Shown: positions 5,430 through 54,525 of the stretch, in pieces
Position numbering within the stretch: the first letter of the stretch is position 1
Layout of the letters: every line of letters starts with the position of its first letter
Assembly (NCBI GenBank): GCA_045641045.1
Contig: JAZUGE010000057.1
Location: forward strand, 4,259-68,258
DNA: 64,000 nucleotides
Origin: Treponema sp.
Lineage (GTDB): Bacteria > Spirochaetota > Spirochaetia > Treponematales > Treponemataceae
Direction: 5' to 3'
Made by a program: the position numbers and the translations under genes
The notes under the pieces: model-generated
Told to the model about the DNA's origin: nothing
The model's input: only the letters and a program-made list of their open reading frames with translations
The model's database searches: none

Positions 5430-6728
5430 TTATTTTTTATGGCGTTTATCAAGCTCGTTATAAACATCCTGCCAGTTAACGCCTTCTTTATACATAAGAA
5501 CACTTACAAAGTATAAAAGGTCAGCTGCTTCCCAGATTACATCTTCTTTTGTCTCTGCATCATCTGTAAGTTCTTCGGCTTCTTCCATTACCTTTTCGCG
5601 AACCCGCTTATCATCAAGGGTTGCTGTGTAACTGCCTGATCTTGGATTTGCAAAGCGCTCTGAAATTGTACCGTAAAGGCGCTCCAAAGTTGATTTTTCA
5701 TCAGCTTCGCTGCCAAAGCAGGTCCAGCTGCCTGTATGACAGGCAGGGCCATGTGGTATTACAGTTGCAAGTACAGTATCTCTGTCACAATCAACACGAA
5801 GCTTTACAACTTCAAGATAATTACCGCTTGTTTCACCTTTAGTCCACAATACATTGCGTGTACGACTAAAGAATGTAAGCTTGCCTGTTTCAAATGTTTT
5901 TTCAAAGGCCTCTTTATTGCTGTAACCCATCATTAAAACCTCGCCGTTTACACTTTGAGCTATAACAGGTATCATGCCGTTTACTTTTTCAAAATTAAGA
6001 CAATTAATAAATGAGTCTTTAAGGCTCACAGCACCTGTATACAATGCCATACCAAGCTGAACATCACATCCTAGCTTTTCAAGCTCTGCAATCTGTTCAA
6101 GACTGTTTACACCACCAGCCGCAACAACACGGCATTTAACTGCACTGCGTAATGCACGGCAGGCATCCATATCAGTACCCTGCATACAGCCTTCTTTTTC
6201 GACACAGGTAAATAAAAGCTCACTACAGTATTTTTCAGCTTCCTTTGCACCATCAATAAGTGAAATATCAACAGTTTCAGTCCAACCTTTTACAGCAATT
6301 TTGCCATTTATTGCATCAACACTGATAATTATTCGCTGCTTACCAATTGCTTTGTTAAGTTCTTCAAGAAACTCAACATTTAAAACTGATTCGCCCTGTT
6401 TAGGAGATGGGTTCCAGGCTGCGCTTCCGATAATTACTTTTTCAGCACCAAGACTTATAAGTTCTTTTGCCTTTTTCACATCACGGATACCACCACCAAC
6501 ACGCACGTTGCCATGATGGAGAAGATGCTTTAAAAGCTGAGTATTTTTTGTATTACCCTTTTCGTCTGTATGGCGCATTGCCTGATCAAGGTCAATAATT
6601 GCAACCTCGCCATATTTGTTAAACTCTGCAATGAGTGCATCTGCATCATCTCTTTGCAAAACCAAGTCTTTTCCATTTTTTAGCTGGACAACGTGTCCAT
6701 CTTTTAAGTCTATTGAAGCGATTACCAT
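5430..6728 (-). CDS. hisA/hisIE: Fused HisA (ProFAR isomerase) - HisI (PR-AMP cyclohydrolase) - HisE (PR-ATP diphosphatase)
   Basis: N-terminal IASIDLKDGHVVQL...VGGGIR...VIIGS...SVD TIM barrel; FFSRTR..LWTKGETSG and DCDRD...ACHTG..TCF (HisI); KVMEEAEE...WEAADLLYF (HisE). Confidence 0.9.
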   Translation of the reverse strand: MVIASIDLKDGHVVQLKNGKDLVLQRDDADALIAEFNKYGEVAIIDLDQAMRHTDEKGNTKNTQLLKHLLHHGNVRVGGGIRDVKKAKELISLGAEKVIIGSAAWNPSPKQGESVLNVEFLEELNKAIGKQRIIISVDAINGKIAVKGWTETVDISLIDGAKEAEKYCSELLFTCVEKEGCMQGTDMDACRALRSAVKCRVVAAGGVNSLEQIAELEKLGCDVQLGMALYTGAVSLKDSFINCLNFEKVNGMIPVIAQSVNGEVLMMGYSNKEAFEKTFETGKLTFFSRTRNVLWTKGETSGNYLEVVKLRVDCDRDTVLATVIPHGPACHTGSWTCFGSEADEKSTLERLYGTISERFANPRSGSYTATLDDKRVREKVMEEAEELTDDAETKEDVIWEAADLLYFVSVLMYKEGVNWQDVYNELDKRHKK

Positions 6729-6734
6729 ACCGTG

Positions 6735-6763
6735 AGTATACTAAAATGAATAAATATACACAA
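6735..6763 (-). promoter_or_regulatory. Sigma70-type promoter, probably leaderless (hisA-hisIE)
   Basis: Minus strand TTGTGT-N17-TATACT-N6-ATG; no SD. Confidence 0.7.
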
Positions 6764-7064
6764 TTATGCTAAAGACTTTTATAAATGCTTAATTTAACAA
6801 CTTATGGTCTTTTATCAACATCTTCTTTCGCTATTTATAAAATATAATCATCTATTATCAAAATATTTATTTTCATATTAAATAATGATTTCAATATTAC
6901 TTAAAGTAACTTTTTTTTACAAACTTTTATCTGTTTTTTATTCCTTTAAAACTATATACTTTATTCTGGCTCTAATAACGCTTTATTAACATTTTGTTAT
7001 TTGAGTTTTAATTAAGACATAACAAAACATTTTAGTTTGTATTTGTATTGGAGGCTTTTCAATC

Positions 7065-7568
7065 ATGAAAAAGTTAATTTCAACAATTGCTGCTATTTCT
7101 GCAGCTCTTCTTATGGGTGCTTCTGTATTTGCAGAAGGCTATATCAACGCTAACGACCTTGCTCCTGCTAACATCGTAGAAGATCAGGCAGAAGAAGACG
7201 GATTTGTTATCCACGGAACAGCTGAAAAGTTTGTTGTTATCGATTCATCAGAACCTGCAAAGGCTGGCGATGATGTATTTACACAGCGCATTAACCTCAA
7301 GGGTTCAGGAAAGCCAGATGTACGTTCTGTTACTTTCCCTGCAAAGAAAGGCGAAACAATCACAGTATTTGCAGCTTCTTCATCTAAGACAGACAGCCGC
7401 ACAATCAATATTGCAAACGAAGCTGGCGAAGTTGTTGCAGAAATGTCTGAAAAGCCATACGTTGAAGGCGTTACAGTAGAAAGCTTCAAGGCTCCTGCTG
7501 ACGGTACATATGCAGTATACTCTGCAAAAAATGGTATGTATATCTACCAGATTACAGTTACAAAGTAA
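7065..7568 (+). CDS. Secreted small beta-rich protein, putative stand-alone carbohydrate-binding module
   Basis: Signal peptide ending in VFA, GGAGG SD, beta-strand-rich mature part, directly upstream of the PL9 lyase. Function is inferred. Confidence 0.55.
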   Translation: MKKLISTIAAISAALLMGASVFAEGYINANDLAPANIVEDQAEEDGFVIHGTAEKFVVIDSSEPAKAGDDVFTQRINLKGSGKPDVRSVTFPAKKGETITVFAASSSKTDSRTINIANEAGEVVAEMSEKPYVEGVTVESFKAPADGTYAVYSAKNGMYIYQITVTK

Positions 7569-7628
7569 ATAATGACAGGCTGTAACAATTTTACACGCTA
7601 TATTCATTTATTTAATAACTAACTCTTC

Positions 7629-7663
7629 AAAAAACGCAGAACCGTAACGGTGCTGCGTTTTTT
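7629..7663 (+). terminator. Intrinsic terminator between the small secreted protein and the pectate lyase
   Basis: AAAAAACGCAG-A-ACCG-TAA-CGGT-G-CTGCGTTTTTT. Confidence 0.75.
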
Positions 7664-7720
7664 GTATTTTAGTACCTTCGCAGGTACGTAAAATTTTAAA
7701 TCATAAATTGGAGAAAAGTT

Positions 7721-10705: not shown

Positions 10706-10727
10706 CTAATTATTAACATATAAACTC

Positions 10728-10766
10728 AAGGCTGTATGGGATACTCCATACAGCCTTATTTTTTTT
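10728..10766 (+). terminator. Intrinsic terminator after the PL9 lyase
   Basis: AAGGCTGTATGG/CCATACAGCCTT stem followed by a T-run. Confidence 0.8.
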
Positions 10767-10777
10767 GCTATGAAAAT

Positions 10778-10831: not shown

Positions 10832-10852
10832 ACCGTGTGTTATATTTTTTTA

Positions 10853-15315: not shown

Positions 15316-16925
15316 GTTTTGCTTATGTTTTTATCTCTACTTTCTTTATCTATCTCACCGAGAACTGCATAATTTCTCATTACACTAATAAGAATCTGCC
15401 AGGATTCTAACTGCTTATCTAAAAGGACACTTGACTCAGCATTACGTGCTGAGTTCATTATGACCCTGATATTTGAAATATTATCAGGTTTTGCTTTTTT
15501 TGCATCACCAACAACGTCTTCAATAAGTTTTGTCAATGTATACAAGGATTGAGAGCATGTCTGAACAAGATGCTGAGCTTTATTATTAACATTGTCGACA
15601 AGTTTACTCAGCTGCTTTAAAAAATCTGGATCAGAACGACTGTCATTTATTAAACCATTTATATAAGCAAGGGAATTATCACCACTTGCTTCAAAGGTTG
15701 ATTCAAATGCTAAAATATGGGAACTCCACTGAAAACACTCGTACACACATTCTGCAAACTTGGCCTCATATACAGGATTGTTAAAAAAACCTTCTATAAT
15801 TAAGTCTTCAAGATATGTTTTTATACCCTGGCTTAGATATATATGCAAAAATGTTTTTAAAACCATCAATGGTTTTATCCATAAAAAAGTGCTGACCTGA
15901 TTTGCTTCAAGTTTTTTATTTGTATCAATATTATATCCGTTTAACTCAATAAGAGGATCTGAACCAAAAAGTTTTTTTATATCAGCTAAAATCGTTTCGT
16001 CCCTGATTTCAGTCTTTATACGGTCTTCATCTGCATTAAATACTTTTGTGCGTTCCTCAGCAAGTCGCTTGCGATGTTCACTTTTATACTCCACTGTTTT
16101 ATTAGGTATTTCAGTACTGTTCTTGGCAACGCAGATAAGTTTATATAATAAACCTGCACTAATTATATTTTTTATCAGTGAGTTTATTTTTCGTAAATCT
16201 TCATCCAGCTTTTCCTTAAATGCATCAGTAACACTGGCTTTATCTTTCATTTGTGCAAGAGCAATGAGAGCTCTTGACATGGCACCTGTTATAATGAATC
16301 CTTTTGTAAGATAATATAAATCCAGCAGACACTCAGAAAATGCAGAAATGTGATTATTAGCAAATACAGGCGTATAATTTTCATCATAACTGTTATAATT
16401 TACATCAAATACCTGAAGTATGCTTCCATAATTAAAATTACAGATATCATACAACTGAAGTAAATTTGCAATTACTCCATCAATTTTAGTAAACTCTTCT
16501 GAGTTAAGCTGCTTTACAATCTGCTCATGCAGCATTCGCTGTCTTGCATAAACACTGGTACGATGATTTTCATCAACATCAAGTATTTCCTGCTTACGAA
16601 AGCCATACCCTAATCTTGCAATTTTAGACTGTATATCAGCACCAAACCCTGTAAGTAAGAGCTGATTTATGAACTGGTCATTGCTTTTTTTATCTTTTGT
16701 ACATATTGTCTCTGAAAGTATTTTTAATGAGCCTTTACACAACTTTTGCAGCATGTACACGTAGTTTGCAAACTGAACAGTAAGCATTCCATTTTTATAA
16801 ATACATGGTTCAATCGCTTTTAATTCGTTTTCCAAAGCTTTTATTTCGCGCTTTTTTTGTGTGGCTGGAGAACCTTTTCCCCTGAAAAAAGATATTATTG
16901 CTGTTATAAGCGAAAAAAATTTCAT
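15312..16925 (-). CDS. Conserved spirochete helical protein (DUF5312-like)
   Basis: 537-aa helical ORF with an ATGA overlap into the cyclase gene. The family name is recalled, not searched. Confidence 0.55.
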   Translation of the reverse strand: MKFFSLITAIISFFRGKGSPATQKKREIKALENELKAIEPCIYKNGMLTVQFANYVYMLQKLCKGSLKILSETICTKDKKSNDQFINQLLLTGFGADIQSKIARLGYGFRKQEILDVDENHRTSVYARQRMLHEQIVKQLNSEEFTKIDGVIANLLQLYDICNFNYGSILQVFDVNYNSYDENYTPVFANNHISAFSECLLDLYYLTKGFIITGAMSRALIALAQMKDKASVTDAFKEKLDEDLRKINSLIKNIISAGLLYKLICVAKNSTEIPNKTVEYKSEHRKRLAEERTKVFNADEDRIKTEIRDETILADIKKLFGSDPLIELNGYNIDTNKKLEANQVSTFLWIKPLMVLKTFLHIYLSQGIKTYLEDLIIEGFFNNPVYEAKFAECVYECFQWSSHILAFESTFEASGDNSLAYINGLINDSRSDPDFLKQLSKLVDNVNNKAQHLVQTCSQSLYTLTKLIEDVVGDAKKAKPDNISNIRVIMNSARNAESSVLLDKQLESWQILISVMRNYAVLGEIDKESRDKNISKT

Positions 16926-16931
16926 ACCATA

Positions 16932-16961
16932 ATTTTATACTTGGTATTTTAAATTTCACAA
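16932..16961 (-). promoter_or_regulatory. Sigma70-type promoter, probably leaderless (DUF5312-like gene)
   Basis: Minus strand TTGTGA-N18-TAAAAT-N6-ATG; no SD. Confidence 0.6.
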
Positions 16962-17063: not shown

Positions 17064-18107
17064 CTATCTGTAAGCTTTAAAAATTTCTTCAAAATCAGCT
17101 ACAGTACAAGCACTTACAACCTGCTTACGCAATGCGCCACCGCCTTCAATACCCTTACTATAACAGCAAAACTGTTTGCGCATATCACGACACGCAGCTT
17201 CTTCACCACGGTCTTTTATCAAAAGCTCAAGCTCTCTGAACCCCGCATCAAGACGGGTTTTAGTTGTAATTTCATTTATCTGACCTGTTGTCAGATAATC
17301 GTGAGTATTTGTAAAAATAAACGGATTACCCATTGCACCACGGGCAAACATAACGCCATCCACACCAGTCTCTTTTAACATGCGCTCAGCATCTTCAGCT
17401 TTAAATGCATCCCCACTGCCAAATACTGGTATTCGACCGTTTATCAGTTCAACAAATTCTTTTAAAACTCCCCAATCGGCTTTACCTTCATACCCCTGAG
17501 CTCTGGTACGAGCATGTAATGTAATAGCACTGGCACCAGCTGCAATAGCAGCTTCTGCATTTTCGCGCCAGGTAATATGATCCTCATCCCATCCTTTTCG
17601 AACTTTTACAGTTACTGGAATTACTTTTTCATATTTTACATCATTATCATCTGTATCCTTTCGCAAACCGTCATAATTACGAACTGCATCAACCACAGCC
17701 TTTACTATATGGTAAAGCTTATCAGGATCACGTGTTAAAGAGCTTCCGGCTCCACTTTTTATAATCTTTGGAACAGGACATCCACCATTTATATCAATAC
17801 ACTCTGTACTTGTCTTACGTAAAACCAGTCGGGCAGCCTCAGCCATAATTTGTTCTGTACCGCCAAAAATCTGAACTGCATAAGCCAGTTCATTAGGAGC
17901 ACGTTTCATGATAAGCTCTGTTTTTTCAGAACCACGGGTCAGTGCTTCGGCAGAAACCATCTCTGTATAAGCAAAATCAGCACCACAGTCAGCACAAATT
18001 GATCTGAAAGCTCTGTCTGAATATCCGGCAACAGGTGCCAGAAAAAGGTTTCCATTAAGTTGCAAATCACCTATTTTTACCGGATGATATAAAGGTTTGT
18101 TTTCCAT
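17064..18107 (-). CDS. dusB: tRNA-dihydrouridine synthase
   Basis: LAPVAGYSD, YTEMVSAEAL, DINGGCPVPKI (catalytic Cys), TLHART, GVMFARGAMGNP. Confidence 0.9.
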   Translation of the reverse strand: MENKPLYHPVKIGDLQLNGNLFLAPVAGYSDRAFRSICADCGADFAYTEMVSAEALTRGSEKTELIMKRAPNELAYAVQIFGGTEQIMAEAARLVLRKTSTECIDINGGCPVPKIIKSGAGSSLTRDPDKLYHIVKAVVDAVRNYDGLRKDTDDNDVKYEKVIPVTVKVRKGWDEDHITWRENAEAAIAAGASAITLHARTRAQGYEGKADWGVLKEFVELINGRIPVFGSGDAFKAEDAERMLKETGVDGVMFARGAMGNPFIFTNTHDYLTTGQINEITTKTRLDAGFRELELLIKDRGEEAACRDMRKQFCCYSKGIEGGGALRKQVVSACTVADFEEIFKAYR

Positions 18108-18122
18108 AAGTAGGGAAATTAT

Positions 18123-18155
18123 AAAAAAAAATGGTACTTATTAAAAGTACCATTT
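18123..18155 (-). terminator. Intrinsic terminator after tatD
   Basis: AAATGGTACTT/AAGTACCATTT stem with a T-run on the minus strand. Confidence 0.6.
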
Positions 18156-18206
18156 AAAAGCTAACACGATATTATCAATTGTTATTAATGCAAAACTTAA
18201 CTGATG

Positions 18207-22160: not shown

Positions 22161-22890
22161 AGCTTATAACACATATCAGATTATCACTGTCTGATGTAAA
22201 GTCATCCCTATAAAAATTACTAAAAAACTCTATCTTTGTAAAACCTGCTTTTTTAGCAAGTTCTTTTACATCACTGCGAGTTACAGGATATATGCTGACA
22301 TCTCTGGTTACAGGTATAATCTTACCGTTACCAGTTTCGAGATCTTGATTAAGAACAGTACTGTCATCATCTTTTGTAACAATCTGTGTGAAAAGCTTTG
22401 ATCGTATACTCTCCCTTACTGGTAAAAGCTGTTTAGGCCTTTGATTATATTTTTCAAAATTTGGTAAAGATATCACTAGCTTACCTTTTTTTGAAATAAG
22501 TTGTTTACAGTCATAAAACAATTTTGCAAGCAAAGTATAATCATGCGTATAAATGATACGATCATCCAGAATAGAAATAAGATTGTAAAATCCTTTTCCT
22601 AAGAATCTCGTCATTTCAAGTGAAGACATTTGAAAAAACCTGATTGCCATTAATTGTGTACGACGCCTGCGGTTTGCTGAAGCGATCATCTCTGATGAAG
22701 ATTCTATGCCAGTAACATCAGCACCCTCTTTTGCAAGATAATGTTCAAAAGAACCTGTTCCACAACCAATGCGAAGATATCTCACAGGTTTGCCATAAAT
22801 TGCACTTTCTTTTAAATAAAATTCTTTTTGGGCTTCTGTAACCGGATATAATTCATCATAGTATTCTACTATATTCTGATTTACATCCAT
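22159..22890 (-). CDS. Class I SAM-dependent methyltransferase
   Basis: Motif I-like YLRIGCGTG, VTGIESSSEMI. Confidence 0.75.
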   Translation of the reverse strand: MDVNQNIVEYYDELYPVTEAQKEFYLKESAIYGKPVRYLRIGCGTGSFEHYLAKEGADVTGIESSSEMIASANRRRRTQLMAIRFFQMSSLEMTRFLGKGFYNLISILDDRIIYTHDYTLLAKLFYDCKQLISKKGKLVISLPNFEKYNQRPKQLLPVRESIRSKLFTQIVTKDDDSTVLNQDLETGNGKIIPVTRDVSIYPVTRSDVKELAKKAGFTKIEFFSNFYRDDFTSDSDNLICVIS

Positions 22891-22896
22891 AATAAT

Positions 22897-22924
22897 ATTA
22901 TAAATCCAAACTGCAAAAATGCAA
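22897..22924 (-). promoter_or_regulatory. Sigma70-type promoter, probably leaderless (methyltransferase)
   Basis: Minus strand TTGCAT-N16-TATAAT-N6-ATG; no SD. Confidence 0.7.
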
Positions 22925-23334: not shown

Positions 23335-26300
23335 TCAGATACCTGCCCCGAAATCCTTTTCCATACGCTTATTTGATTTTTCAATCTTACGCTGTAACTT
23401 TAACTCTGCTTTCCGAGCTTTTTTTGCTGCTTTATTTAAGCGACGGTTATTAACAATAAAATAAACAGTTGGCATTAAGAACAGTGTCATAACACTACCA
23501 AATGTCATACCACCAAATACAGTTAATGAAATTGGCTGCATGTTTGTACTACCTTCCCCAGGGAAGAAAGCCATTGGTGCCAGAGATATTACAGTTGTCA
23601 ATGTGGACATCAAAATTGGACGTAAACGGTTTCGAGAAGCCTGAATACAAGCCTCTTCAAGAGCATAGCCACGCTTTCTCAAAAGGTTTGTATAGTCAAC
23701 AAGTACGATACCGTTGTTTACGATTGTACCTACAAGAACAAGCATACCAATAATTGTAACTACATTAAGCTGATTGCGTGTAAGTGCGTAAATTGCTACT
23801 ACACCAATAAATGACAACGGAATTGTAAAGATTACAATAAATGGATCAATCAATGATTCAAACTGCGAAGCCATTACTACAAATACGAGTAAAGCAGCGA
23901 GGATAATTACAAGACCAAAGTTCACAACTGCAGTCTTCATTTCTTCCATATCACCAGAATAACTGATTACAACAGCTTCATCCTTTGGAATATTATCTTC
24001 AATAAGCTTAATAACACCGGCTTGAACCTTATCAAGTGATAAACCAGAAACAGGTTTAGCAGTTACGTGTAATATTCGTGACTGATTTTCACGGTAAATT
24101 GTTGTTGGTGCTGTTGTTTCCTCATAATGAGCAAAGCTTGATAAAGGTATACGCTGACCTGTACTTGAAATTACAGAGATACTATCAAGGTCAGCAAGTT
24201 TTGCTTTATCCTTTTCAGCAAGACGTACTATAACATCAATATCATCACCGCTTTTTGTAAAACGACTGGCAGTTTTACCATTGATTGCTGCTGCAATTTC
24301 GCTACCCAGAGAGTATACATTAATACCAAACTGGTACATACGATCACGATCAACTACAATTTCAGCCTGTGGTAAACCGTCTTTTAAGTCAGATTCGACT
24401 TCAACAACCCAATCTTTACCTTCTTCTTTAAGAAGTTTTTCAATTGCACGTGAAGTTGACTGAACAAGTTTTAAGTCATCAGACTTAATATTAATCTGTA
24501 CACCGCTTGAGCTTGATGCACTATTTGCATTTGATGCAAAAGTAAAGTCAGCTCCTGGGAACAAGTAAAAATATTTACGAAGTTTTTCTTTTGCAGTTTT
24601 TTCGTTATCCCAGCCCTTTTCGCGCTCTTCAGGAGGGTAGAGAGAAAAAATTATACTACCAGTATTTGTCTCTGAACCTGATGACATGGCACTAGTTCCA
24701 CCAGCAGTTACAATTGAAAACTTAACCCCCTTTAAGTCTTGTAATGCCATCTGTTCAAACTGCTGAGCTATTTCCTGGGTAGCTTCAACTTTGCTTCCTG
24801 TTGGCAGAGTAAGTGTTACCTGGATCATATTACTTGCAGATTCAGGCATAAAAATAAATCCTACAAACTTTACTGCAACAATTGACAGGACAAATAATCC
24901 CAAGAGCGAACTGATAAATACTTTTCTATGATGAAGTACAAAAGATACGCCCTTCGCATATTTTTCATCAAGTTTATCAAAAAAGTTATTAAATGCACGG
25001 TCAAGACCATACCAGAAACCTGACTTATCACTCACATCAAGTTTGCGGACAAACTTTGCAGAAAGTACAGGAACAAGACATACAGCAACAATTAACGAAC
25101 ACGATAAAGAGAAAATAATTGTCCATGCTACATCAGCAAAAAGTTGCCCCATAACACCAAGTTTTTTCTGGAACATAATCATAGGCAAGAAGATACAAAC
25201 AGATGTCAGTGTACTACCTGTAATAGACATAATCATTTCATGGCTACCAAGAATAGCTGCAACCTTTGGTTTTGTATCTCTCTGTATATAGGAATAAATA
25301 TTTTCCAGTACAACAATTGAGTTATCTACAAGCATACCAATACCCAATAACATACCAGCCATTGATATCTGGTTGATACTTATTCCCTTAAAGTACATAC
25401 AAAACAACGCAATCATTACAGAAATTGGAATTGATACACCAACAATGAGCGTACTCTTAAATGAGCGTAAGAATACGAGAAGAACTACTATAGCAAGAAG
25501 GGCACCCTGTACTACAGAACTTACAACTTCTGAAATTGTCTGCTCAATGATATCAGTTGTATTAAATGCCTCAACAATCTCAACATCAGTTGGTAACTCT
25601 TTCTTAAGCTTTTCAAGCTCTTTACGGATACGCTTTGCAGTGGCTACAGAGTTCTTACCTGACTGTTTTTGAACCATAAGAACAACACAAGGCTCCCCAT
25701 CAAGGAATGCCAAAGTTGTCTCATCTTTATAACCATCATAAACATCAGCTATATCACGCAAACGTATTGTCTTAAGCTCTCCAAGGCCACTTGCTTTATA
25801 ACTGATTACAGTATTACGCAAGTCATCAAGCGACTGATATTTACCATTTGTCTTAATAGAGTAGTTATAATCGCCGCTTTCAATAGTACCGCCGGAGCTC
25901 TGTACATTTTGAGAACCAATCATCTGTGCAACAGATGTAATGCTTAAACCATATGCTTCAAGACGATCTCGTGGAATATCAACATTAATAGACTCTTCAC
26001 GACCACCTGAAGCTGTTGCACTTGCAACACCATCAAGCTGCTCAAGTCGAGGACTAATTACATCTTCTGCATATTCACGAAGCTCTTCTGGAGTACGTGA
26101 ACCGCGCAAACCTAATCCCATGATTGGCATCATACTAGGATCAAGGCGCATAGTAATAGGGCTGTCCGCATCATCAGGTAAATACGTGCGGACCATATCT
26201 ATTTTATCTCGTATATTACCTACCGCAACATCAAGATTCGTACCATATTCAAGCTCTAGAATAACTAAGCTTAAGCCCGACATTGATCGGGACTGTATCT

Positions 26301-26535
26301 TTTTTAGACCTGATACACCAGAAAGAGCACTTTCAAGTGTACGTGTCAGGTTTTGTTCTACTTCTTCAGGACCTGCACCATTGTAAGTTGTAAATACAAT
26401 CATGTATGGGATATCCATATCAGGATACATGTCTACACTCATCTGTGTAGTACAAAATATACCCATCAGAACCATGATTAAAAATACAAGAACAGTTGTT
26501 GTAGGTTTTTTTACACATCGTTCAGATAATGTCAT
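23335..26535 (-). CDS. RND efflux transporter permease subunit (AcrB/AcrD/AcrF family)
   Basis: 1066 aa; GAGPEEVEQ, GMLVDNSIVVLEN, VNNGIVLVD and RLRPILMSTLTT; two large periplasmic loops. Confidence 0.93.
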   Translation of the reverse strand: MTLSERCVKKPTTTVLVFLIMVLMGIFCTTQMSVDMYPDMDIPYMIVFTTYNGAGPEEVEQNLTRTLESALSGVSGLKKIQSRSMSGLSLVILELEYGTNLDVAVGNIRDKIDMVRTYLPDDADSPITMRLDPSMMPIMGLGLRGSRTPEELREYAEDVISPRLEQLDGVASATASGGREESINVDIPRDRLEAYGLSITSVAQMIGSQNVQSSGGTIESGDYNYSIKTNGKYQSLDDLRNTVISYKASGLGELKTIRLRDIADVYDGYKDETTLAFLDGEPCVVLMVQKQSGKNSVATAKRIRKELEKLKKELPTDVEIVEAFNTTDIIEQTISEVVSSVVQGALLAIVVLLVFLRSFKSTLIVGVSIPISVMIALFCMYFKGISINQISMAGMLLGIGMLVDNSIVVLENIYSYIQRDTKPKVAAILGSHEMIMSITGSTLTSVCIFLPMIMFQKKLGVMGQLFADVAWTIIFSLSCSLIVAVCLVPVLSAKFVRKLDVSDKSGFWYGLDRAFNNFFDKLDEKYAKGVSFVLHHRKVFISSLLGLFVLSIVAVKFVGFIFMPESASNMIQVTLTLPTGSKVEATQEIAQQFEQMALQDLKGVKFSIVTAGGTSAMSSGSETNTGSIIFSLYPPEEREKGWDNEKTAKEKLRKYFYLFPGADFTFASNANSASSSSGVQINIKSDDLKLVQSTSRAIEKLLKEEGKDWVVEVESDLKDGLPQAEIVVDRDRMYQFGINVYSLGSEIAAAINGKTASRFTKSGDDIDVIVRLAEKDKAKLADLDSISVISSTGQRIPLSSFAHYEETTAPTTIYRENQSRILHVTAKPVSGLSLDKVQAGVIKLIEDNIPKDEAVVISYSGDMEEMKTAVVNFGLVIILAALLVFVVMASQFESLIDPFIVIFTIPLSFIGVVAIYALTRNQLNVVTIIGMLVLVGTIVNNGIVLVDYTNLLRKRGYALEEACIQASRNRLRPILMSTLTTVISLAPMAFFPGEGSTNMQPISLTVFGGMTFGSVMTLFLMPTVYFIVNNRRLNKAAKKARKAELKLQRKIEKSNKRMEKDFGAGI

Positions 26536-26578
26536 CTAAAATCTCCAGACAAATCTCATATATTAACAAACAAAAAAA

Positions 26579-27511
26579 CTACTCAGACTGAGCTACTGAA
26601 ATGATGTTTATTTTTGCACCATCATTCAAAAGGCCCTGTCCCTTTATTACAATTTCATCACCAGACTCAAGTCCTTTTGTTACTTCAGTCTTGTTATCAA
26701 CAGAAATACCTGTTGTAATTTTTTGCTGACGTACAGCAGCTGGTGTATCACCATTCTTCTGTGATGAAACAATGTAAACGTATGACTCACCATCACGTGT
26801 AACTATTGCAGGCGATGGTATTACAATTGCATTTTTTACACTGTCAGTTACAAGCTTAACACGTGCATACATACCAGCCTTTACACGACTGTCTGATTTT
26901 ACAAAACGAAGTTTTACGCCCATTGTGCGTGTCATTGTATCAAGAACAGGACTTACTTCAGTTACGCGAGCTGAAAAAACTTCATTTGGATATGCATCAA
27001 ATGTTACACTTGCAAGCTGCCTGTCCTGAATACGACTGATAAAGCGCTCTGGAATACTGATTTTAACTTCAAGTTCATCTGTACGGGCAACCTTTGCAAT
27101 ACTCATAGCCTGACTAACTGTATTACCAATAGTCACAGGCAGTGAAGTCACGCGGCCTGCAATAGGGGACTTTACAGGGCTTGTCTGATATGCATAACCG
27201 GCACGGCTGGCATCAACAAATGCGATTATATCATCTTTCTGAACCATATCACCAACGCTTACTTTTACGCTGGCAATTTTACCTGCAACGTCTGGCATTA
27301 CATCAACAGCATTTACACTGGCAACATCTCCACCAAACTCAAGATAATCGTCAAGATTTCCGTTTCCAGTTTTTAGCGTATTAACAGCAAAAAGAGTTTC
27401 AGACTCTTCCTTTGTGTCTGCAGTCTTTTTTCCACCACAACCAATAAGCATTGACATAACTGCAAGACCAGCAGTAAATGTTAATAAAGCAGATTTAATA
27501 CTACTCTTCAT
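26579..27511 (-). CDS. RND periplasmic adaptor (membrane fusion protein), lipoprotein
   Basis: Lipobox LIGC; VKSPIAGRV, F.A.V..VSPV.D..TRT, TGISVDNKTEV..GL..GD.IVIKG. Confidence 0.9.
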   Translation of the reverse strand: MKSSIKSALLTFTAGLAVMSMLIGCGGKKTADTKEESETLFAVNTLKTGNGNLDDYLEFGGDVASVNAVDVMPDVAGKIASVKVSVGDMVQKDDIIAFVDASRAGYAYQTSPVKSPIAGRVTSLPVTIGNTVSQAMSIAKVARTDELEVKISIPERFISRIQDRQLASVTFDAYPNEVFSARVTEVSPVLDTMTRTMGVKLRFVKSDSRVKAGMYARVKLVTDSVKNAIVIPSPAIVTRDGESYVYIVSSQKNGDTPAAVRQQKITTGISVDNKTEVTKGLESGDEIVIKGQGLLNDGAKINIISVAQSE

Positions 27512-30243: not shown

Positions 30244-30247
30244 AAAC

Positions 30248-30301
30248 ATGTTACCGAACAGTCGGTAACATAAAAATACCGAACAATCGGTAACATGTCA
30301 A
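30248..30301 (-). promoter_or_regulatory. Promoter with twin palindromic operator for the TetR-RND operon
   Basis: ATGTTACCGA-ACAG-TCGGTAACAT (30248-30271) and TACCGA-ACAA-TCGGTA (30277-30292). TTGACA(30301-30296)-N17-TATTTT on the minus strand. Confidence 0.85.
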
Positions 30302-30430
30302 CAAAAATCAAAAACAAATAACAGGATTTAATATAATTTAGTATATAAAAATAAATTTATGGAAAAGTTATAAAAAATGGTGCGAACAAACAAGTGTACG
30401 CACCATATCTAGTAAATATCAGTTATTATC

Positions 30431-31063
30431 TTATTTAATTTCTTCTATAATAGATATAAAATCATTGATATTAGGACACCTTAACTCTATCGCTTTTTGA
30501 ATCATTTTATCACTCTCTGAAAAACGTCCGGCCATAGCATAGGCAACAGCAAGATTCGCAGGCACCATATAAAGATTACTGTTACAATTCAATGCTTTTT
30601 CAAGGTTTTCAACTGCAAGCTCTGCATTTTTTTGACCAATGTACAAAGCGCCGATACTAGCATATGCTTCTGCAAGAGTCGGATCCATAGCCACAGCTTT
30701 GTTGTAGTTTAAGAGTGCTTTTGTATCATCACCTAAAGCATGATAATTTACCCCCAAAGTCACATAGCCCCTGTAATCATCTCTGATATTAAGAGATTTT
30801 TCCTGATACTCAATAGCTTTAACAAGTTCTTCTTGAGCCATGTAGACATTTGCAATAAATGTATAAATAACTTCAGGACTGTAGTTTGTATCCTCGCTTA
30901 AAACTTTATCAAAAAGTTCAAGTGCCTTGTTAAAATCTTTGCTACCATATGCAGCCATTGCCTGCTGAACAGTATAGTCTCCAGGCTTTGAACAGCCTGT
31001 TAAGCAAAATAGTCCGCTACAGCAAACTAAAAGAATAATCAAAATAACTATTTGTTTTATCAT
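30431..31063 (-). CDS. TPR-repeat lipoprotein
   Basis: Lipobox LTGC; several TPR-like repeats (AEAYASIGALY...A...LEKAL). Confidence 0.8.
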   Translation of the reverse strand: MIKQIVILIILLVCCSGLFCLTGCSKPGDYTVQQAMAAYGSKDFNKALELFDKVLSEDTNYSPEVIYTFIANVYMAQEELVKAIEYQEKSLNIRDDYRGYVTLGVNYHALGDDTKALLNYNKAVAMDPTLAEAYASIGALYIGQKNAELAVENLEKALNCNSNLYMVPANLAVAYAMAGRFSESDKMIQKAIELRCPNINDFISIIEEIK

Positions 31064-31095: not shown

Positions 31096-31124
31096 TTGTA
31101 AATTTCTGAAACCAAATTTATAAT
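31096..31124 (+). promoter_or_regulatory. Sigma70-type promoter of the MinD-like/pseudoreceptor/cheD operon
   Basis: TTGTAA-N17-TATAAT, 14 nt before the ATG; no SD. Confidence 0.7.
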
Positions 31125-31138
31125 TATCTTAATAAATC

Positions 31139-32158
31139 ATGGTCAACATATTACCTATAGCAAGTGGGAAAGGTGGGGTAGGTAAAAGTTCCATTGCAGT
31201 CAATCTCGCCATAACTCTTGCCAGAAAGCAAAAAAAAGTTATTTTAGCTGACTTTGACCTTGGTGGAGCAAACCTTCACACTCTTTTAGGAATAAAAAAT
31301 AACCACGCCGGCATCGGAAATTTTGTTTATAAACAGACTCACAGTCTGTCGTCTCTTTTACAGCCTACTCAGGTACAAGGATTGTCCTTTATTGCTGGCG
31401 ACTGTCTGTATCCAGGCACTCCTAACATGGACTATTTTACAAAATGCAAGATTGTAAAAGAACTTAATACTCTTGATGCCGACTATATTATACTGGATTT
31501 AGGTGCAGGTACAACCTATAACACTCTTGATTTATTCTTATTAACTAAAAACTCCTTAATAGTGACAACACCTGAACTTACATCGATTCTTAATGCCTAT
31601 TCATTTTTGAAAGCCGCTGTTTTCAGATTTTTTTGCAGGCAGTTTACTTCAAAAAGTGATGAAAGAAAAACTATAGATGAATTCTTAAAGCTTAGCCCAA
31701 ACGGTAGCGAAGCAAGTTTTTCAGAACTAGTTCAATACATGACAAATCTGTTTCCTGAAACTGCCCCACAGGCAATGCAGATACTCAGAGATTTTAGACC
31801 ACAAGTCATTGTGAATATGGGTAAAACTTCAAATGACCTTGAAATGGCCAAACGACTGAGATCATTAGCTCAAAAAAAGTTAGATACTAACATAGATTTT
31901 ATTGGATTTTTGCCAAAGGATGATAAAATTAGTTTATCTGTAGCTAAACGAACTCCGTTATCCCTATGGGAACCTGACTGTGAGTTTGTAAAAGCCATTC
32001 AAACAGCTGCTGTACGTATAATGCAGCACACATACACTTGTGAACATGCAGATATGTTTACAAATAATGATGATAGGGATTTAACAGTTCTTACTGAAGA
32101 GTTTAACAATAATGCAATAGCTGTTCCTGCAGCTGCAGACAAAGGATTGAGTTTATGA
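31139..32158 (+). CDS. MinD/FlhG-like P-loop ATPase
   Basis: Deviant Walker A SGKGGVGKS, ADFDLGGANLH, LDLGAG, VTTPELTS. Confidence 0.88.
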   Translation: MVNILPIASGKGGVGKSSIAVNLAITLARKQKKVILADFDLGGANLHTLLGIKNNHAGIGNFVYKQTHSLSSLLQPTQVQGLSFIAGDCLYPGTPNMDYFTKCKIVKELNTLDADYIILDLGAGTTYNTLDLFLLTKNSLIVTTPELTSILNAYSFLKAAVFRFFCRQFTSKSDERKTIDEFLKLSPNGSEASFSELVQYMTNLFPETAPQAMQILRDFRPQVIVNMGKTSNDLEMAKRLRSLAQKKLDTNIDFIGFLPKDDKISLSVAKRTPLSLWEPDCEFVKAIQTAAVRIMQHTYTCEHADMFTNNDDRDLTVLTEEFNNNAIAVPAAADKGLSL

Positions 32159-47075: not shown

Positions 47076-47104
47076 TTGATACAGAAGTTAAATTGCAATA
47101 AAAT
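47076..47104 (+). promoter_or_regulatory. Sigma70-type promoter of proS, near-leaderless
   Basis: TTGATA-N17-TAAAAT-N8-ATG; no SD. Confidence 0.6.
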
Positions 47105-47112
47105 ATGTAATT

Positions 47113-48936
47113 ATGAAAACTTCTCAATCATATATTTCCACACTACGTGACGCACCTGCAGAAGCAGTAATTACAAGTCACAAGCTTATGATTCGTGCGG
47201 GATTAATCCGCAAATTAGGAAACGGACTTTATACATACCTTCCATTGGGTTTCCGTTCCCTTATGAAACTTGAAACAATTATCCGTCAGGAATTAGATGC
47301 ATCTGGCGCACTTGAATTTAAACCCACAGTAATAGTTCCAGGAGACATCTGGAAAGAGTCTGGACGTTGGGAAACAATGGGACCTCAGATGTTAAAGGCT
47401 AAAAATCGTGGAGAACAAGATATGGTTGTCTCTCCAACTGCAGAAGAAGCATACACAGCCATTGTTCGAGATGCATTAACATCATATAAGCAGCTTCCTG
47501 TTAACTTTTATCAGATTAATACAAAATATAGAGACGAAATCAGACCTCGCTACGGAGTTATGCGTGGTCGTGAGTTTATCATGATGGACGGCTATACAAT
47601 GAACGCTGATGATGAGTCTCTAGATCAGTCATATCAGGCCTATGCAAAGGCATACCACCGTATTTTCAAGCGTCTTGGTCTCAAAATTATCCCAGTTAAG
47701 GCTGACTCAGGAGCTATGGGTGGTAATGGTTCTGAAGAGTTTATGATTGAAAGTCCTATTGGTGATGACACACTTATTATCTGTCCAGATTGTGGATATG
47801 CTGCAAATGTTGAAAAAGCTCCATGTAAACTTGATGGAACTCCAACTCCAAAAACAGAAACAGCAATTGAAGATATTGCAACTCCAAACGTTTTCTCAAT
47901 TGAAGATATGGAAAAATTCTTCAATATGAAATCTACAAATTTTGTAAAAGCTCTGGTTTACAAAGCTGAAAATGTAGGATTAGATCTCTCAAAAGCTCCA
48001 CACTGTGAAAACCTCAAGCTTGTAAAAGATCCAAGTGGTAATTATTATCCTACTGCATATTTTGTTGTTCTAATTCGTGGAGACCTTGATGTTAACGAAG
48101 CTAAACTTGCAGCAACACTTAAAGCAAGTTCTGTTGAACTTGCCAGTGATGAAGAAGTAGTTCAGATTGCAGGAGCCGGACATGGTTTTGTAGGACCTGT
48201 AACAAGCAAAGCACCTTTAATTGTTGACTACTCTGTAATTTCATCTGCTGAAGATGGAACATATGTAGCACAGATGCACGATGCTATTGCAGGTGCTGGT
48301 AAAGATGGTTTCCATATTAAGCATGTTGAACCTCTCCGTGACTTTACACCTTATATAAATGCTGATGTTCGTACTGTAAAACCAGGTGATAAATGTGCCT
48401 GCTGTGGCGGTACATATTATCAGAAGAAGGGTAACGAACTTGGACATATTTTTAAGCTCGGACAAAAATACACAAAGAGCATGCATGTTTCTTTCTTAGA
48501 CGTAAACGGAAAGTCTCAGACCCCAACAATGGGATGTTATGGTATTGGTGTAGACCGAACACTTGCAAGCATCATAGAAACTCACAGTGATGAAAAAGGT
48601 ATAATATGGCCAATGAGTGTTGCTCCTTACCAAGTTTGTATTGTTCCTATTAAGTATGAAGGCTCAATGAAAGACGTTGCTGATAAGCTTTATGATGAAC
48701 TCACAAAAGCTGGTATTGAAGTACTTCTTGATGACCGCAACGAACGTCCAGGTGTTAAGTTCAATGATATGGAACTTATTGGTATACCTTTACGCATTAC
48801 TGTTGGCGAAAAAAGTTTACCAAATGTTGAGTTTAAGCCACGTTCAGCTTCTGAAGCTCAGTTAGTACCTTCTGAACAGGCTGCTGCAAAAGCAGTAGAA
48901 TTTGTTAATGCAGCTCTTGCAGAACTTAACGCATAA
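47113..48936 (+). CDS. proS: Proline--tRNA ligase (bacterial type with editing insertion)
   Basis: PTAEE, YQINTKYRDEIRPRYGVMRGREF, ELGHIFKLGQKY, MGCYGIGVDR, anticodon domain LDDRNERPGVKF. Confidence 0.97.
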   Translation: MKTSQSYISTLRDAPAEAVITSHKLMIRAGLIRKLGNGLYTYLPLGFRSLMKLETIIRQELDASGALEFKPTVIVPGDIWKESGRWETMGPQMLKAKNRGEQDMVVSPTAEEAYTAIVRDALTSYKQLPVNFYQINTKYRDEIRPRYGVMRGREFIMMDGYTMNADDESLDQSYQAYAKAYHRIFKRLGLKIIPVKADSGAMGGNGSEEFMIESPIGDDTLIICPDCGYAANVEKAPCKLDGTPTPKTETAIEDIATPNVFSIEDMEKFFNMKSTNFVKALVYKAENVGLDLSKAPHCENLKLVKDPSGNYYPTAYFVVLIRGDLDVNEAKLAATLKASSVELASDEEVVQIAGAGHGFVGPVTSKAPLIVDYSVISSAEDGTYVAQMHDAIAGAGKDGFHIKHVEPLRDFTPYINADVRTVKPGDKCACCGGTYYQKKGNELGHIFKLGQKYTKSMHVSFLDVNGKSQTPTMGCYGIGVDRTLASIIETHSDEKGIIWPMSVAPYQVCIVPIKYEGSMKDVADKLYDELTKAGIEVLLDDRNERPGVKFNDMELIGIPLRITVGEKSLPNVEFKPRSASEAQLVPSEQAAAKAVEFVNAALAELNA

Positions 48937-50051: not shown

Positions 50052-50398
50052 AAATCATCATCTTCACTTTACTATTTCTTTTTTCATTTGTGCCTGTGTT
50101 TCCAGAGTCGTCTCTTCAGCAAGATATGTACTTTAAAATAATGGGTGTCAAAGAATTGAGAGATTCACCAGATTTTGGTATCCCCCCTGTTCACAATACA
50201 CTAAACCACGAAAATGGGCTTGAATGTAGAATTTTAACTACTGGAGACAAAGCAAACAGCAGTAATACCTCTGGACAATGGTATTATGTACTTACGACCT
50301 GCGGTATTTGGGTACAATCTGGTGACTGGATTCCAAAATACTCAAAATTTTGGATTTTCATAACAGATGAAGATGTATTATATGATATTGAGATTTAA
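50048..50398 (+). CDS. Hypothetical exported protein, possible SH3b-like domain
   Basis: Signal peptide, ATGA overlap with the upstream gene, ILTTG......GQWYYV pattern. Confidence 0.55.
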   Translation: MKIIIFTLLFLFSFVPVFPESSLQQDMYFKIMGVKELRDSPDFGIPPVHNTLNHENGLECRILTTGDKANSSNTSGQWYYVLTTCGIWVQSGDWIPKYSKFWIFITDEDVLYDIEI

Positions 50399-51276
50399 AA
50401 TGAACTCCTAGATAAAGGAGTTCCTATCCAAACCCCCTCACTACCAAGATATTCCTTTTTTTGACCATCAATCAAAAACTGAACAGTTTTTACCGTGTTA
50501 AACTCTGTTGCAGTGTATACAATCTGCATAAGCTGATTTATCGAACCTTCAACACCTTTTGGATTAAACTCAAATGCATCATTAAAATTTAAATAAGCTA
50601 CACCATCACTAACTCTTGCCCCCAACAGCTTTGTTCCAGGAGGTATAAGAGAAGCAGCTTTTTCACCTTTAATTGGACCGGCCAATAAAAGTTTAATATT
50701 TGTAGTTAACGGTGAATCATTTTTTTCGATACTCCGGGTAATCACTTTTTTAGTTATACTACCATCTTTATCAATAACTACAAAATATAACTTTGCATTC
50801 ATATGAGGTTTTTCTGAAACTACAGGAGTTTTTGAAGTTTGAGATGCAGAGTCTGTCTTATCTGAAGTTTTTGGTTGAGACGCTTTGACATCATCTTTGT
50901 ATATATTTTTATCAACTTCAGCAGAGTTATCACTTTTATTTTCAACAGTAATTTCATCGCTTACAGTAACCTGAATCATTATAGGCTCTTCTTCTTCAAT
51001 TACAAGCTCTTTATTTTCCTCAATGACAGGCTCTAAGGCTTTAGATTGATCAGATTTTACGCTAGTCTCTTTTAAAACATTTTTTTCATCTGTAACCTGA
51101 TGGTTTGCTATAAACTCTGGTGTTACACCAAAAATGCGTTCAAAAAAATGAGTTGTTTTTAAATTTGTATAAATTGTATCCCTTTTTACCAAATAAACTA
51201 TAAATACAAGAATCATACAAAGGACAGATACTGCTAACACTAGACCTGTCGAATTATTTTTACTTTTTTCGCTCAT
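50395..51276 (-). CDS. GerMN-domain membrane-anchored protein
   Basis: TM helix, low-complexity linker, LLAGP....SLIPPGTKLL...GVAYLNF...QIVYTATEF..V..VQFLIDG. Start moved to ATG 51276. Confidence 0.85.
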   Translation of the reverse strand: MSEKSKNNSTGLVLAVSVLCMILVFIVYLVKRDTIYTNLKTTHFFERIFGVTPEFIANHQVTDEKNVLKETSVKSDQSKALEPVIEENKELVIEEEEPIMIQVTVSDEITVENKSDNSAEVDKNIYKDDVKASQPKTSDKTDSASQTSKTPVVSEKPHMNAKLYFVVIDKDGSITKKVITRSIEKNDSPLTTNIKLLLAGPIKGEKAASLIPPGTKLLGARVSDGVAYLNFNDAFEFNPKGVEGSINQLMQIVYTATEFNTVKTVQFLIDGQKKEYLGSEGVWIGTPLSRSSF

Positions 51277-51282
51277 TCTTTT

Positions 51283-51311
51283 AGTATAGAACACTGACAA
51301 CTAAAAGTCCA
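51283..51311 (-). promoter_or_regulatory. Sigma70-type promoter, probably leaderless (GerMN gene)
   Basis: Minus strand TGGACT-N17-TATACT-N6-ATG; no SD. Confidence 0.7.
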
Positions 51312-51444
51312 CTTGCCCTAAAAGACCATATAAAAGAATAATAACGACTTTTTATTTCAAAAAAGTTGTCTTAATTTTCTCTTGTATGTTATAAAGATTA
51401 ATTATAGACTCTTAGCAAGTTACATTTATCCAGGAGGATATATC

Positions 51445-52470: not shown

Positions 52471-52497
52471 TTTTACAAGTCCATATTAAATACCTTT

Positions 52498-52527
52498 AAA
52501 CACCTGCACCACGCAGGTGTTTTTTTT
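52498..52527 (+). terminator. Intrinsic terminator after the kinase gene
   Basis: AAACACCTGC-ACCAC-GCAGGTGTTT plus a T-run. Confidence 0.8.
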
Positions 52528-52659
52528 ATAACACTTATTTTTTGATTTATTTTTATATGAAGTTTAGTATTTATCTATTAGTGTTGTTGACAATTAAGCA
52601 AATACTAATTAATCTTTTACATATCAGTTAACTAGGTAATAAATAACGGAGGATGTATT

Positions 52660-53595
52660 ATGGCACAAAAAATTGCAACGAAAATTACTGATCTGATCGG
52701 TAATACACCTTTATTAGAGCTAACAAATCTTGAAAAAAAACATGGATTAAAAGCAAAACTATTAGCAAAGCTTGAGTATCTTAATCCTGCTGGTAGTGCA
52801 AAGGATCGCATTGCAAAGGCAATGATAGATGACGCCCTTGCAACTGGAAAAATCAATCAAGACTCAATCATCATTGAACCTACGTCAGGAAACACAGGAA
52901 TAGGTCTTGCATCTGTAGCTGCTAGCTATGGATTAAAAGTAATCCTTACAATGCCTGAGACTATGTCTGTTGAACGCAGAAACCTTTTAAAAGCATATGG
53001 TGCAGAAATAGTATTAACAGACGGTTCAAAAGGAATGAAAGGCGCAATTACAAAGGCTGAAGAACTTGCAGCTGCAACTCCAGGCTCATTTATTCCTGGG
53101 CAGTTTATTAATCCTGTTAATCCCAAAGTACATGAACTTACAACCGGACCTGAAATTTGGAGTGATACAGACGGGAATATCGACGCACTGGTAGCAGGAG
53201 TAGGGACAGGTGGTACCCTTTCTGGTGCAGGTAGATTCTTAAAATCTAAAAATCCTGATATAAAATTAATTGCTGTAGAACCAGAAACATCAGCAGTTTT
53301 GTCAAAAGGTATAGCAGGACCACACAAAATTCAGGGAATCGGAGCAGGTTTCATACCACAAACAGCTGATACATCAATTTTTGATGAGATAATAACAGTC
53401 AATAATGAAGTATGTTTTTCAACTGGCAAGGAACTTGGTAGAACAGAAGGTTTTTTAGCTGGCATTTCATCAGGAGCAGCATTATGGGCTGCAATACAAC
53501 TTGCAAAACGAAGTGAGTACGAAGGAAAAACAATTGTTGTTGTCCTTCCTGACTCTGGAGACAGATATCTGTCAACACCTCTTTTCACTGACTAG
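52660..53595 (+). CDS. cysK: Cysteine synthase A
   Basis: IGNTPL, NPAGSAKDR (PLP Lys), EPTSGNTG, GVGTGGT, HKIQGIG, PDSGDRYLST. Confidence 0.96.
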   Translation: MAQKIATKITDLIGNTPLLELTNLEKKHGLKAKLLAKLEYLNPAGSAKDRIAKAMIDDALATGKINQDSIIIEPTSGNTGIGLASVAASYGLKVILTMPETMSVERRNLLKAYGAEIVLTDGSKGMKGAITKAEELAAATPGSFIPGQFINPVNPKVHELTTGPEIWSDTDGNIDALVAGVGTGGTLSGAGRFLKSKNPDIKLIAVEPETSAVLSKGIAGPHKIQGIGAGFIPQTADTSIFDEIITVNNEVCFSTGKELGRTEGFLAGISSGAALWAAIQLAKRSEYEGKTIVVVLPDSGDRYLSTPLFTD

Positions 53596-53719
53596 CTTCC
53601 AATTATAAAGACTGATCAATAATAAATATACTCTTCAAGCAGTTTATAGTAGATCAGTCTTTTTAATTTTGTTTAAACTTAAACTTTTTGATATGTATTA
53701 TTGAAAGAAAAGCACCACC

Positions 53720-54490
53720 TTACTTTCGACACTCATACATAATTATTGCTGCAGCCTGAGCAACATTTAAACTCTCGATTGGCTGCTTAATGTTACTATC
53801 TAAGCTATCTGTAAAAGGAATTATGATTAAATCATCACAATTTTCTTTTACTTCGTTCGAAATACCATGCTCTTCGTTACCCAAAACGATCAACAAAGGC
53901 TTAGACTTCTTCATCGTATGAATAGCACTGATTGGTGTTTTTGCATGCACATCAGTTCCAAGTCTGATCATTTTACCTTCCATTGAAGACAAAAGCTTTG
54001 TAATTGAGCGTATAGAATAGATATTTACGTATTCCATTCCACCTTGTGCAACTCTATATGAACTCGTAGTTATTGAACTTTGAGCTTCATCTAATGGGAT
54101 TACAACATTTTTAAAACCAAAAAATGCAGCACTTCGAACAATTGCACCAAGATTATTTGCATTTCCAACTCGATCAAGTAATAAAGCTGATTCACCATTA
54201 TGGAGCCACTGATCTGTAATATCCACAGTTAACGGCTCAATCTCAGGCTGCTCAATCATAGCAACAATACCCTGATGATGTATACTTCCGCACAGTTTCT
54301 CAAGTTCTGCAGGTTCAACTTTGTTATAAGGAGCTTTGCGTTTTGCAAGTGTACGACACAAATCACCAAGACTCATCATACGATCTTGTGTAAAGTATAA
54401 GCGAGTAATTTTTTCTACATTATTCTTTGCAAGAGCCATAACAGCTTCGTAACCACAAACAGCAAGTTCGTTCTTATATTTGTTTTTCAT
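53720..54490 (-). CDS. TrmH/SpoU-family RNA 2'-O-methyltransferase
   Basis: NNLGAIVRSA, LGNEEHG and ESLNVAQA SPOUT motifs. Confidence 0.9.
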   Translation of the reverse strand: MKNKYKNELAVCGYEAVMALAKNNVEKITRLYFTQDRMMSLGDLCRTLAKRKAPYNKVEPAELEKLCGSIHHQGIVAMIEQPEIEPLTVDITDQWLHNGESALLLDRVGNANNLGAIVRSAAFFGFKNVVIPLDEAQSSITTSSYRVAQGGMEYVNIYSIRSITKLLSSMEGKMIRLGTDVHAKTPISAIHTMKKSKPLLIVLGNEEHGISNEVKENCDDLIIIPFTDSLDSNIKQPIESLNVAQAAAIIMYECRK

Positions 54491-54496
54491 GCATTA

Positions 54497-54525
54497 AATA
54501 TAACGGCAATAATGGTACATGTCCA
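54497..54525 (-). promoter_or_regulatory. Sigma70-type promoter, probably leaderless (TrmH gene)
   Basis: Minus strand TGGACA-N17-TATATT-N6-ATG; no SD. Confidence 0.7.

Follow-up and report, generated by a model that had tools for sequence, protein, structure and literature searches.

The window analysed here is a 64-kb stretch of contig C57 from a Treponema genome assembly (2.83 Mb, 70 contigs, 36% GC), in which eight genes carry promoter-like elements close before their start codons. The nearest relatives of its proS gene, 78% identical at the protein level, come from metagenome-assembled genomes of rumen and gut Treponema and from T. zioleckii and T. ruminis; because of these relatives, the source organism is taken to belong to the rumen/gut Treponema clade, as a species not yet described. 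A sequence-only reading of the window had singled out five unrelated genes in which a −10 hexamer ends exactly 6 nucleotides (nt) before the ATG, behind a plausible −35 element and without a Shine–Dalgarno (SD) sequence, and had proposed that they give rise to leaderless mRNAs. When the window was re-read, each hexamer, spacer and gap was found as described at these five sites, which precede a hisA-hisIE fusion and the genes for a DUF5312 protein, an S-adenosylmethionine (SAM)-methyltransferase, a GerMN (Germane) protein and a TrmH/SpoU methylase (Table 1). The SD 4-mer was absent from all five. Three further sites that had been called near-leaderless, before proS, dusB and a MinD/ParA-like gene, were likewise present, and the gene names were confirmed by Pfam.

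Genes were called across the whole genome with a simple open reading frame (ORF) and codon-usage caller of our own, which yielded 2,301 genes, together accounting for 91% of the genome. Motif profiles were aligned on the first in-frame ATG (2,269 genes had a usable one) and compared with 200 shuffles, each preserving dinucleotides, of the 60-nt region preceding the start. At offset −12, TANNNT was present in 173 genes, whereas the shuffles gave 89.9 ± 9.5 (z = 8.7); at −13 it was present in 133 genes, against approximately 90 (z = 4.7). The counts were 52 at −11 and approximately 85–100 at positions further upstream. The count against shuffled controls, which the sequence-only reading had suggested, thus revealed a positional enrichment over the AT-rich background. 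The hexamer TATAAT was found in 32 and 26 genes at −12 and −13, compared with approximately 5 elsewhere, and the extended −10 form TGnTAnnnT in 37 and 29 genes at the same offsets, compared with approximately 7 elsewhere. Full promoters were defined as TTGNNN-N16-18-TANNNT, and the gap as the number of nt between the end of the −10 hexamer and the ATG. Counted in this way, 62, 43, 23 and 27 full promoters had gaps of 6, 7, 8 and 9 nt, respectively, against approximately 8 at each gap from 10 to 30 and 2–3 at gaps 3–5; a full promoter at gap 6–9 was present in 154 genes, compared with 22.3 ± 4.8 in the shuffles (z = 27). Among the 173 genes with a box at −12, TTGHNN was located at a 17-nt spacer in 42 and at an 18-nt spacer in 13, with approximately 2 at other spacings, and boxes at −20, −25 and −30 showed no comparable TTG coupling. 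Because the −35 element had not been selected for, this coupling provides an independent test. The elements found genome-wide are those of σ70 promoters (TTGnnn, spacer 17 ± 1, TAnnnT, optional TGn).

Such matches could conceivably arise by chance in an AT-rich genome, or from wrongly picked start codons: among 2,269 genes, TANNNT is expected approximately 90 times per offset by chance, and the starts were set by a simple first-ATG rule. In addition, in-frame TAA and TAG stop codons inflate the in-frame offsets, and the profile was therefore redone with TATNNT only, which cannot be a stop codon; it peaked too (82 genes at −12 and 69 at −13, against approximately 38). Internal in-frame ATGs (15,010) displayed codon periodicity only and no promoter peak. 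Chance and base composition were rejected on the basis of the shuffles, the internal-ATG control and the TATNNT-only profile.

By a crude candidate classifier, whose counts are approximate, the layout was found before 200 of the 1,281 genes that come first in a transcription unit (15.6%), compared with 35 of 943 operon-internal genes (3.7%), and just 8 of these 235 layout genes had an SD 4-mer (GGAG, GAGG, AGGA or GGAA at −18 to −5). The classifier missed the methyltransferase, GerMN and TrmH sites of the window and took two doubtful internal ATGs (21179 and 50048). Position −1 was T or C in 84% of the layout candidates; a purine at −1 occurred in 13%, 7% and 13% of genes with gaps of 6, 7 and 8 nt, respectively, and in 35% of other first genes. 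The combination of a pyrimidine at −1 with a purine at +1 reads as the preference of transcription initiation. The promoter geometry also distinguished among codons: it preceded 46 per 1,000 start ATGs compared with 4.5 per 1,000 upstream out-of-frame ATGs, and was found before 11.6 per 1,000 in-frame GTG, 1.2 per 1,000 in-frame TTG and approximately 8 per 1,000 other upstream triplets, a specificity for ATG that fits the known requirement for a 5′-terminal AUG. Within the 60 nt that follow the first ATG, further in-frame ATGs showed the geometry at 12.4 per 1,000, against approximately 3 per 1,000 at other downstream positions; because of this approximately fourfold enrichment, about 10 genes are probably shorter than their longest ORF.

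The same observations bear on a different function of the A/T-rich hexamer, whose distance from the ATG is that of an SD sequence. It might be a non-SD element that binds the ribosome or S1 in an mRNA starting further upstream, of the Bacteroidetes-type 'group B', and other non-SD initiation must indeed exist in this genome, because 559 first genes lack both an SD and a leaderless-type promoter. Neither the TTG at a spacing of exactly 17 nt nor the TG extension, however, would be needed by such an element, which would also be expected before operon-internal genes, yet the layout is concentrated in first genes. The pyrimidine at −1 is a transcription-start signature, and GerMN orthologues put a σ28-type box at the same distance, as described below. 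We rejected this explanation, which is very improbable, on the strength of the −35 coupling and the restriction to first genes.

Conservation was followed in orthologues of the window genes. Approximately 60 Treponema orthologues of proS (64–78% amino acid (aa) identity) retain TTGnnn-17-TAnnnT 6–9 nt before ATG-AAA-RCN-TC; their gap is mostly pyrimidine, none has a usable SD, and the flanking DNA has diverged freely, whereas in the sampled spirochaete families outside this one, as well as in one sister genus, proS is preceded by GGAG or AGGAG. For trmH, a −10 box is located 6–9 nt from a conserved ATG-AAR-AAY in approximately 24 of 29 orthologues of the genus, a few being now SD-led or operon-internal, and eight further genera of the family share the layout; here no upstream start is possible, because the open frame comprises 257 aa for a 256-aa protein. 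In other genomes of the genus, 26 of 29 hisA-IE orthologues have TAnnnT 5–9 nt before a conserved ATG-GTA-AT, and approximately 22 of those 26 also have a TTG near the 17-nt spacer. Of 16 methyltransferase orthologues from other genomes, 14 have TAnnnT, mostly as TATAAT, 5–9 nt from the aligned ATG, usually with TTGCAA at −35; of 29 DUF5312 orthologues from further genomes of the genus, 20 have TAnnnT 5–9 nt ahead of the nearest in-frame ATG. As for proS, the DNA around box and start has diverged in the trmH, hisA-IE and methyltransferase orthologues. The orthologous N-termini of proS, trmH and hisA-IE align from residue 1 and the distance from box to ATG is conserved; a wrong ATG would not keep a fixed distance from a promoter, and misassigned starts were rejected on these grounds. 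An origin of the layout in chance matches or in wrongly picked starts is hardly credible. As a side observation, the hisA-hisI-hisE fusion is a single 432-aa protein (5430–6728, minus strand), with near-full-length matches (residues 1–431 of 432) in 31 of the 31 genus genomes searched.

Among 19 GerMN orthologues from other genomes, approximately 7 have TATAAT-6/7-ATG, and in approximately 9 the σ70 boxes are replaced by TAAA-N16-CCGATAA(T) ending 6–7 nt before the ATG, which we take to be the σ28 (FliA) consensus. As read from these orthologues, the promoter type is swapped, from σ70 to σ28-type, and its distance to the ATG is kept. The σ28-type box hints that, in those species, this Germane-domain protein is part of the motility regulon. 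In the window itself, the longer ORF of the GerMN gene (start TTG at 51300) begins within the spacer of its own promoter. Across the whole genome, CGATA[AT] peaks 7 nt before first ATGs, with 8 genes compared with approximately 1.5 per other gap (Table 1). This set includes flgB and several genes for secreted proteins, which look like LysM/M23-type peptidase, OmpA-like and vWA-like proteins, and is a candidate for a small class of σ28-dependent leaderless mRNAs.

Table 1 Promoter and start sites in the window, and genes of the genome with CGATA[AT] 7 nt before the first ATG (contig:position)
Feature	Position	Strand	Elements and remarks
hisA-hisIE fusion	6726..6763	-	TTGTGT (6758-6763)-17-TATACT (6735-6740)-6-ATG (6726-6728); Pfam His_biosynth + PRA-CH + PRA-PH
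DUF5312 gene	16923..16961	-	TTGTGA-18-TAAAAT-6-ATG (16923-16925); Pfam
dusB	18105..18146	-	TATAAT (18118-18123), 10 nt to ATG (18105-18107); weak -35 TTTTAA; Pfam
SAM-methyltransferase gene	22888..22924	-	TTGCAT-16-TATAAT-6-ATG (22888-22890); Pfam
MinD/ParA-like gene	31096..31141	+	TTGTAA-17-TATAAT, 14 nt to ATG (31139), no SD; Pfam
proS	47076..47115	+	TTGATA-17-TAAAAT-8-ATG (47113-47115); 8-nt gap ATGTAATT
GerMN (Germane) gene	51274..51311	-	TGGACT-17-TATACT-6-ATG (51274-51276); Pfam
TrmH/SpoU methylase gene	54488..54525	-	TGGACA-17-TATATT-6-ATG (54488-54490); in-frame TAA at -6; Pfam
CGATA[AT]-7-ATG gene	C59:47151	+	
CGATA[AT]-7-ATG gene	C14:31105	-	
CGATA[AT]-7-ATG gene	C70:3201	-	
CGATA[AT]-7-ATG gene	C60:39467	+	
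CGATA[AT]-7-ATG gene	C60:194043	+	
CGATA[AT]-7-ATG gene	C16:15859	-	
CGATA[AT]-7-ATG gene	C24:17009	+	

The original proposal of probable leaderless mRNAs is therefore supported, at the level of sequence, by the spacing, the −35 coupling, the restriction to first genes, the specificity for ATG, the pyrimidine at −1 and the conservation. We consider it very probable that a set of housekeeping σ70-type promoters in this organism is placed so that the mRNAs start at the ATG of the first gene, without a 5′ untranslated region (UTR) or SD sequence; the DNA itself shows how the promoters are placed, how far this exceeds chance and how it is conserved, and from this we infer the transcription start and the mode of translation. 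In E. coli promoters, transcription usually begins 7–8 nt beyond the −10 hexamer, at a purine that follows a pyrimidine. In the mechanism that we propose, the first gene of a transcription unit has its ATG 6–7 nt, or less often 8–9 nt, beyond the end of the −10 hexamer, and RNA polymerase holoenzyme bound to the −35 and −10 elements would begin the transcript 7–8 nt beyond the hexamer, with the A of the ATG as its first base. This leaderless mRNA would then offer its 5′-terminal AUG directly to the ribosome and initiator tRNA. At gaps of 8–9 nt, the start may fall 1–3 nt upstream of the ATG, and such a leader is there an equally probable outcome. Roughly 120–250 genes would use the layout, corresponding to 5–11% of all genes and approximately 15% of first genes, the lower figure being the strict-promoter excess and the upper figure the TANNNT excess over an SD-depressed baseline.

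If the promoters are real and transcription nevertheless starts a few bases upstream, the mRNAs would have leaders of 1–5 nt, especially at gaps of 8–9 nt and in the proS gene of the window. In the gap 8–9 classes, position 6 after the −10 is a purine in 74% and position 7 in 63%, and the gap of the window proS, ATGTAATT, has A at positions 5–6. However, 105 of 155 gaps are 6 or 7 nt long, and in these the A of the ATG is the sole suitably placed purine that follows a pyrimidine; most proS orthologues, moreover, have a gap that is all pyrimidine after the first base. We regard this alternative as unlikely, and a leader of 1–5 nt would be too short for an SD sequence, so that translation would still proceed by the leaderless route. 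As an observation on the same gap, the region before the window proS (47099–47115) reads TAAAAT-ATG-TAA-TT-ATG, that is, a minimal start–stop pair ATG-TAA lies between the −10 and the proS ATG; the pair is present only in this genome and is absent from the other proS orthologues listed.

Several points weigh against transcription starting at the ATG itself, for individual sites or more broadly. Genes with gaps of 8–9 nt often have a purine 6–7 nt after the −10, and leaders of 2–3 nt are possible for some of them. The starts are first in-frame ATGs from our own ORF caller, rather than a validated annotation. The TTG that the genome-wide test requires is missing from two of the five exact sites, the −35 elements of which are TGGACT and TGGACA. 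DUF5312 is the weakest of the five, because its orthologues show poor N-terminal conservation. An intrinsic terminator (hairpin GGTACTTTTAATAAGTACC followed by T9) ends the gene upstream of dusB (18118–18165, minus strand); its T-run directly adjoins the TATAAT, which may simply be part of that run or may partly be a by-product of the terminator. On its promoter distance, dusB is at best a candidate for a short leader, and the MinD/ParA-like gene would at best be short-leadered, with a predicted leader of approximately 7–8 nt, and not leaderless.

The breadth of the layout was examined in 400-kb samples of further genomes, with the excess expressed as full promoters at gap 6–9 above expectation per 100 genes. 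The excess was 5.3 in the genome of the window (G000) and 6.6 in another genome of the genus (G027), with 26 full promoters against 5.3 expected in 400 kb. It was 2.4 in a sister genus of the same family (G055), the one genus on which the genome-wide breadth at family level rests, 2.6 in a genome of 62% GC from another family of the same class (G070) and 1.3 in another family of the phylum (G085); one more family of the phylum (G056) had no excess, its promoters lying 17–30 nt upstream instead. Alongside these promoters, the genome of the window has a conventional SD signal: GGAG-type 5-mers peak at −11 (208 genes at that offset), and an SD 4-mer is present in approximately 45% of genes. The 16S rRNA gene was not found in the 70-contig assembly, despite 99.6% completeness by marker genes; in two genus mates the 16S 3′ end reads GGATCACCTCCTTT, with an intact anti-SD. 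Because of the SD peak at −11 and the anti-SD of the genus mates, two initiation classes appear to coexist, and this part of the sequence-only reading is well supported by the SD peak, the anti-SD and the excess of leaderless-type promoters. The reading had also noted clear GGAG/GGAGG sites before most sugar-catabolic genes. A mannitol-dehydrogenase-family gene does belong to the SD class of the window, but so do chemotaxis, efflux and cysteine-synthase genes (Pfam scan), so the class is not sugar-specific.

A separate feature of the window lies upstream of ORF 28978–30249, where the minus strand (30250–30310) carries TTGACA and, after it, the near-palindrome GTTACCGAnTGTTCGGTA(AC) twice, the second copy ending directly at the ATG of this ORF. 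The ORF is located just upstream of HlyD-like and AcrB genes (23335–27511) on the same strand, and a 210-aa ORF (30431–31063), also on that strand, lies upstream of the repeats. The pair looks like a repressor operator pair overlapping promoter and start.

The classical leaderless mRNAs of the E. coli system, lambda cI and Tn1721 tetR, require a 5′-terminal AUG and have no SD, and their requirement for ATG matches the ATG specificity of the Treponema layout. They are, however, isolated cases in a genome in which leaderless translation is inefficient, whereas in Treponema the layout serves the housekeeping genes proS, trmH and hisA-IE. Within the phylum, differential RNA sequencing (dRNA-seq) of Leptospira interrogans identified approximately 440 mRNAs with a UTR shorter than 10 nt, with 170–184 starting on the start codon (PMC5243855), and 5′-end mapping of Borrelia burgdorferi by dRNA-seq identified 85 mRNAs with a UTR shorter than 10 nt (PMC5314773). 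In both, as in Treponema, a leaderless minority exists beside SD-led genes; they are experimental maps of transcription start sites (TSSs) from distant families, whereas the Treponemataceae case is read from sequence alone. The Leptospira study could not find a σ70 motif (PMC5243855), whereas the −35 and −10 boxes are explicit in Treponema. Zheng et al. 2011, in a computational survey of 953 bacterial genomes that contains no orthologue-level conservation, predicted leaderless genes in 6 of 18 Spirochaetes, at 1.8–6.9% of genes (PMC3160421). That range includes the strict −35 excess of 5.3% in Treponema, and the survey predates the rumen/gut Treponema genomes. The positional logic of our scan is that of 'group C' in GeneMarkS-2, which is defined by a −10 at 6–8 nt and comprises Actinobacteria and Deinococcus-Thermus, for example, M. 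tuberculosis and D. deserti (PMC6028130). Group C genomes are given there as having 25–50% of transcripts leaderless, and Treponema, with approximately 15% of first genes, lies below this range, such that a group C call could go either way; spirochaetes are not mentioned in the main text of the paper (PMC6028130). A full-text literature search found no description of leaderless mRNAs in Treponema and no Treponema TSS study. The novelty claimed in the sequence-only reading was overstated, as leaderless mRNAs have been mapped in Leptospira (PMC5243855) and Borrelia (PMC5314773) and predicted in spirochaetes (PMC3160421). What is found here is a known phenomenon extended to a new lineage, in which the promoter statistics and the conservation among orthologues are unusually clear, with no new mechanism.

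More tentatively, the leaderless state itself may be under selection in rumen and gut Treponemataceae, in a lineage-specific 5′-AUG translation regime for a defined gene set; we entertain this as a possibility and lean against it. A lineage-specific regime is suggested because proS and other genes are SD-led in other families and in one sister genus and have the leaderless layout here across dozens of species, and selection on the leaderless state because the box-to-ATG distance was kept when the GerMN promoter type was swapped. If true, the regime could be, for example, growth-phase or stress-selective translation. In practical terms, software that looks for an SD when placing gene starts will err in these genomes, as GerMN illustrates, and the promoter consensus together with approximately 150 predicted TSSs provides a ready operon map for an uncultured group of rumen spirochaetes. 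The clade, which is low-GC and of Gram-negative type and has cultured members, would be a place to study how leaderless mRNAs of housekeeping genes are translated outside Actinobacteria and Deinococcus.

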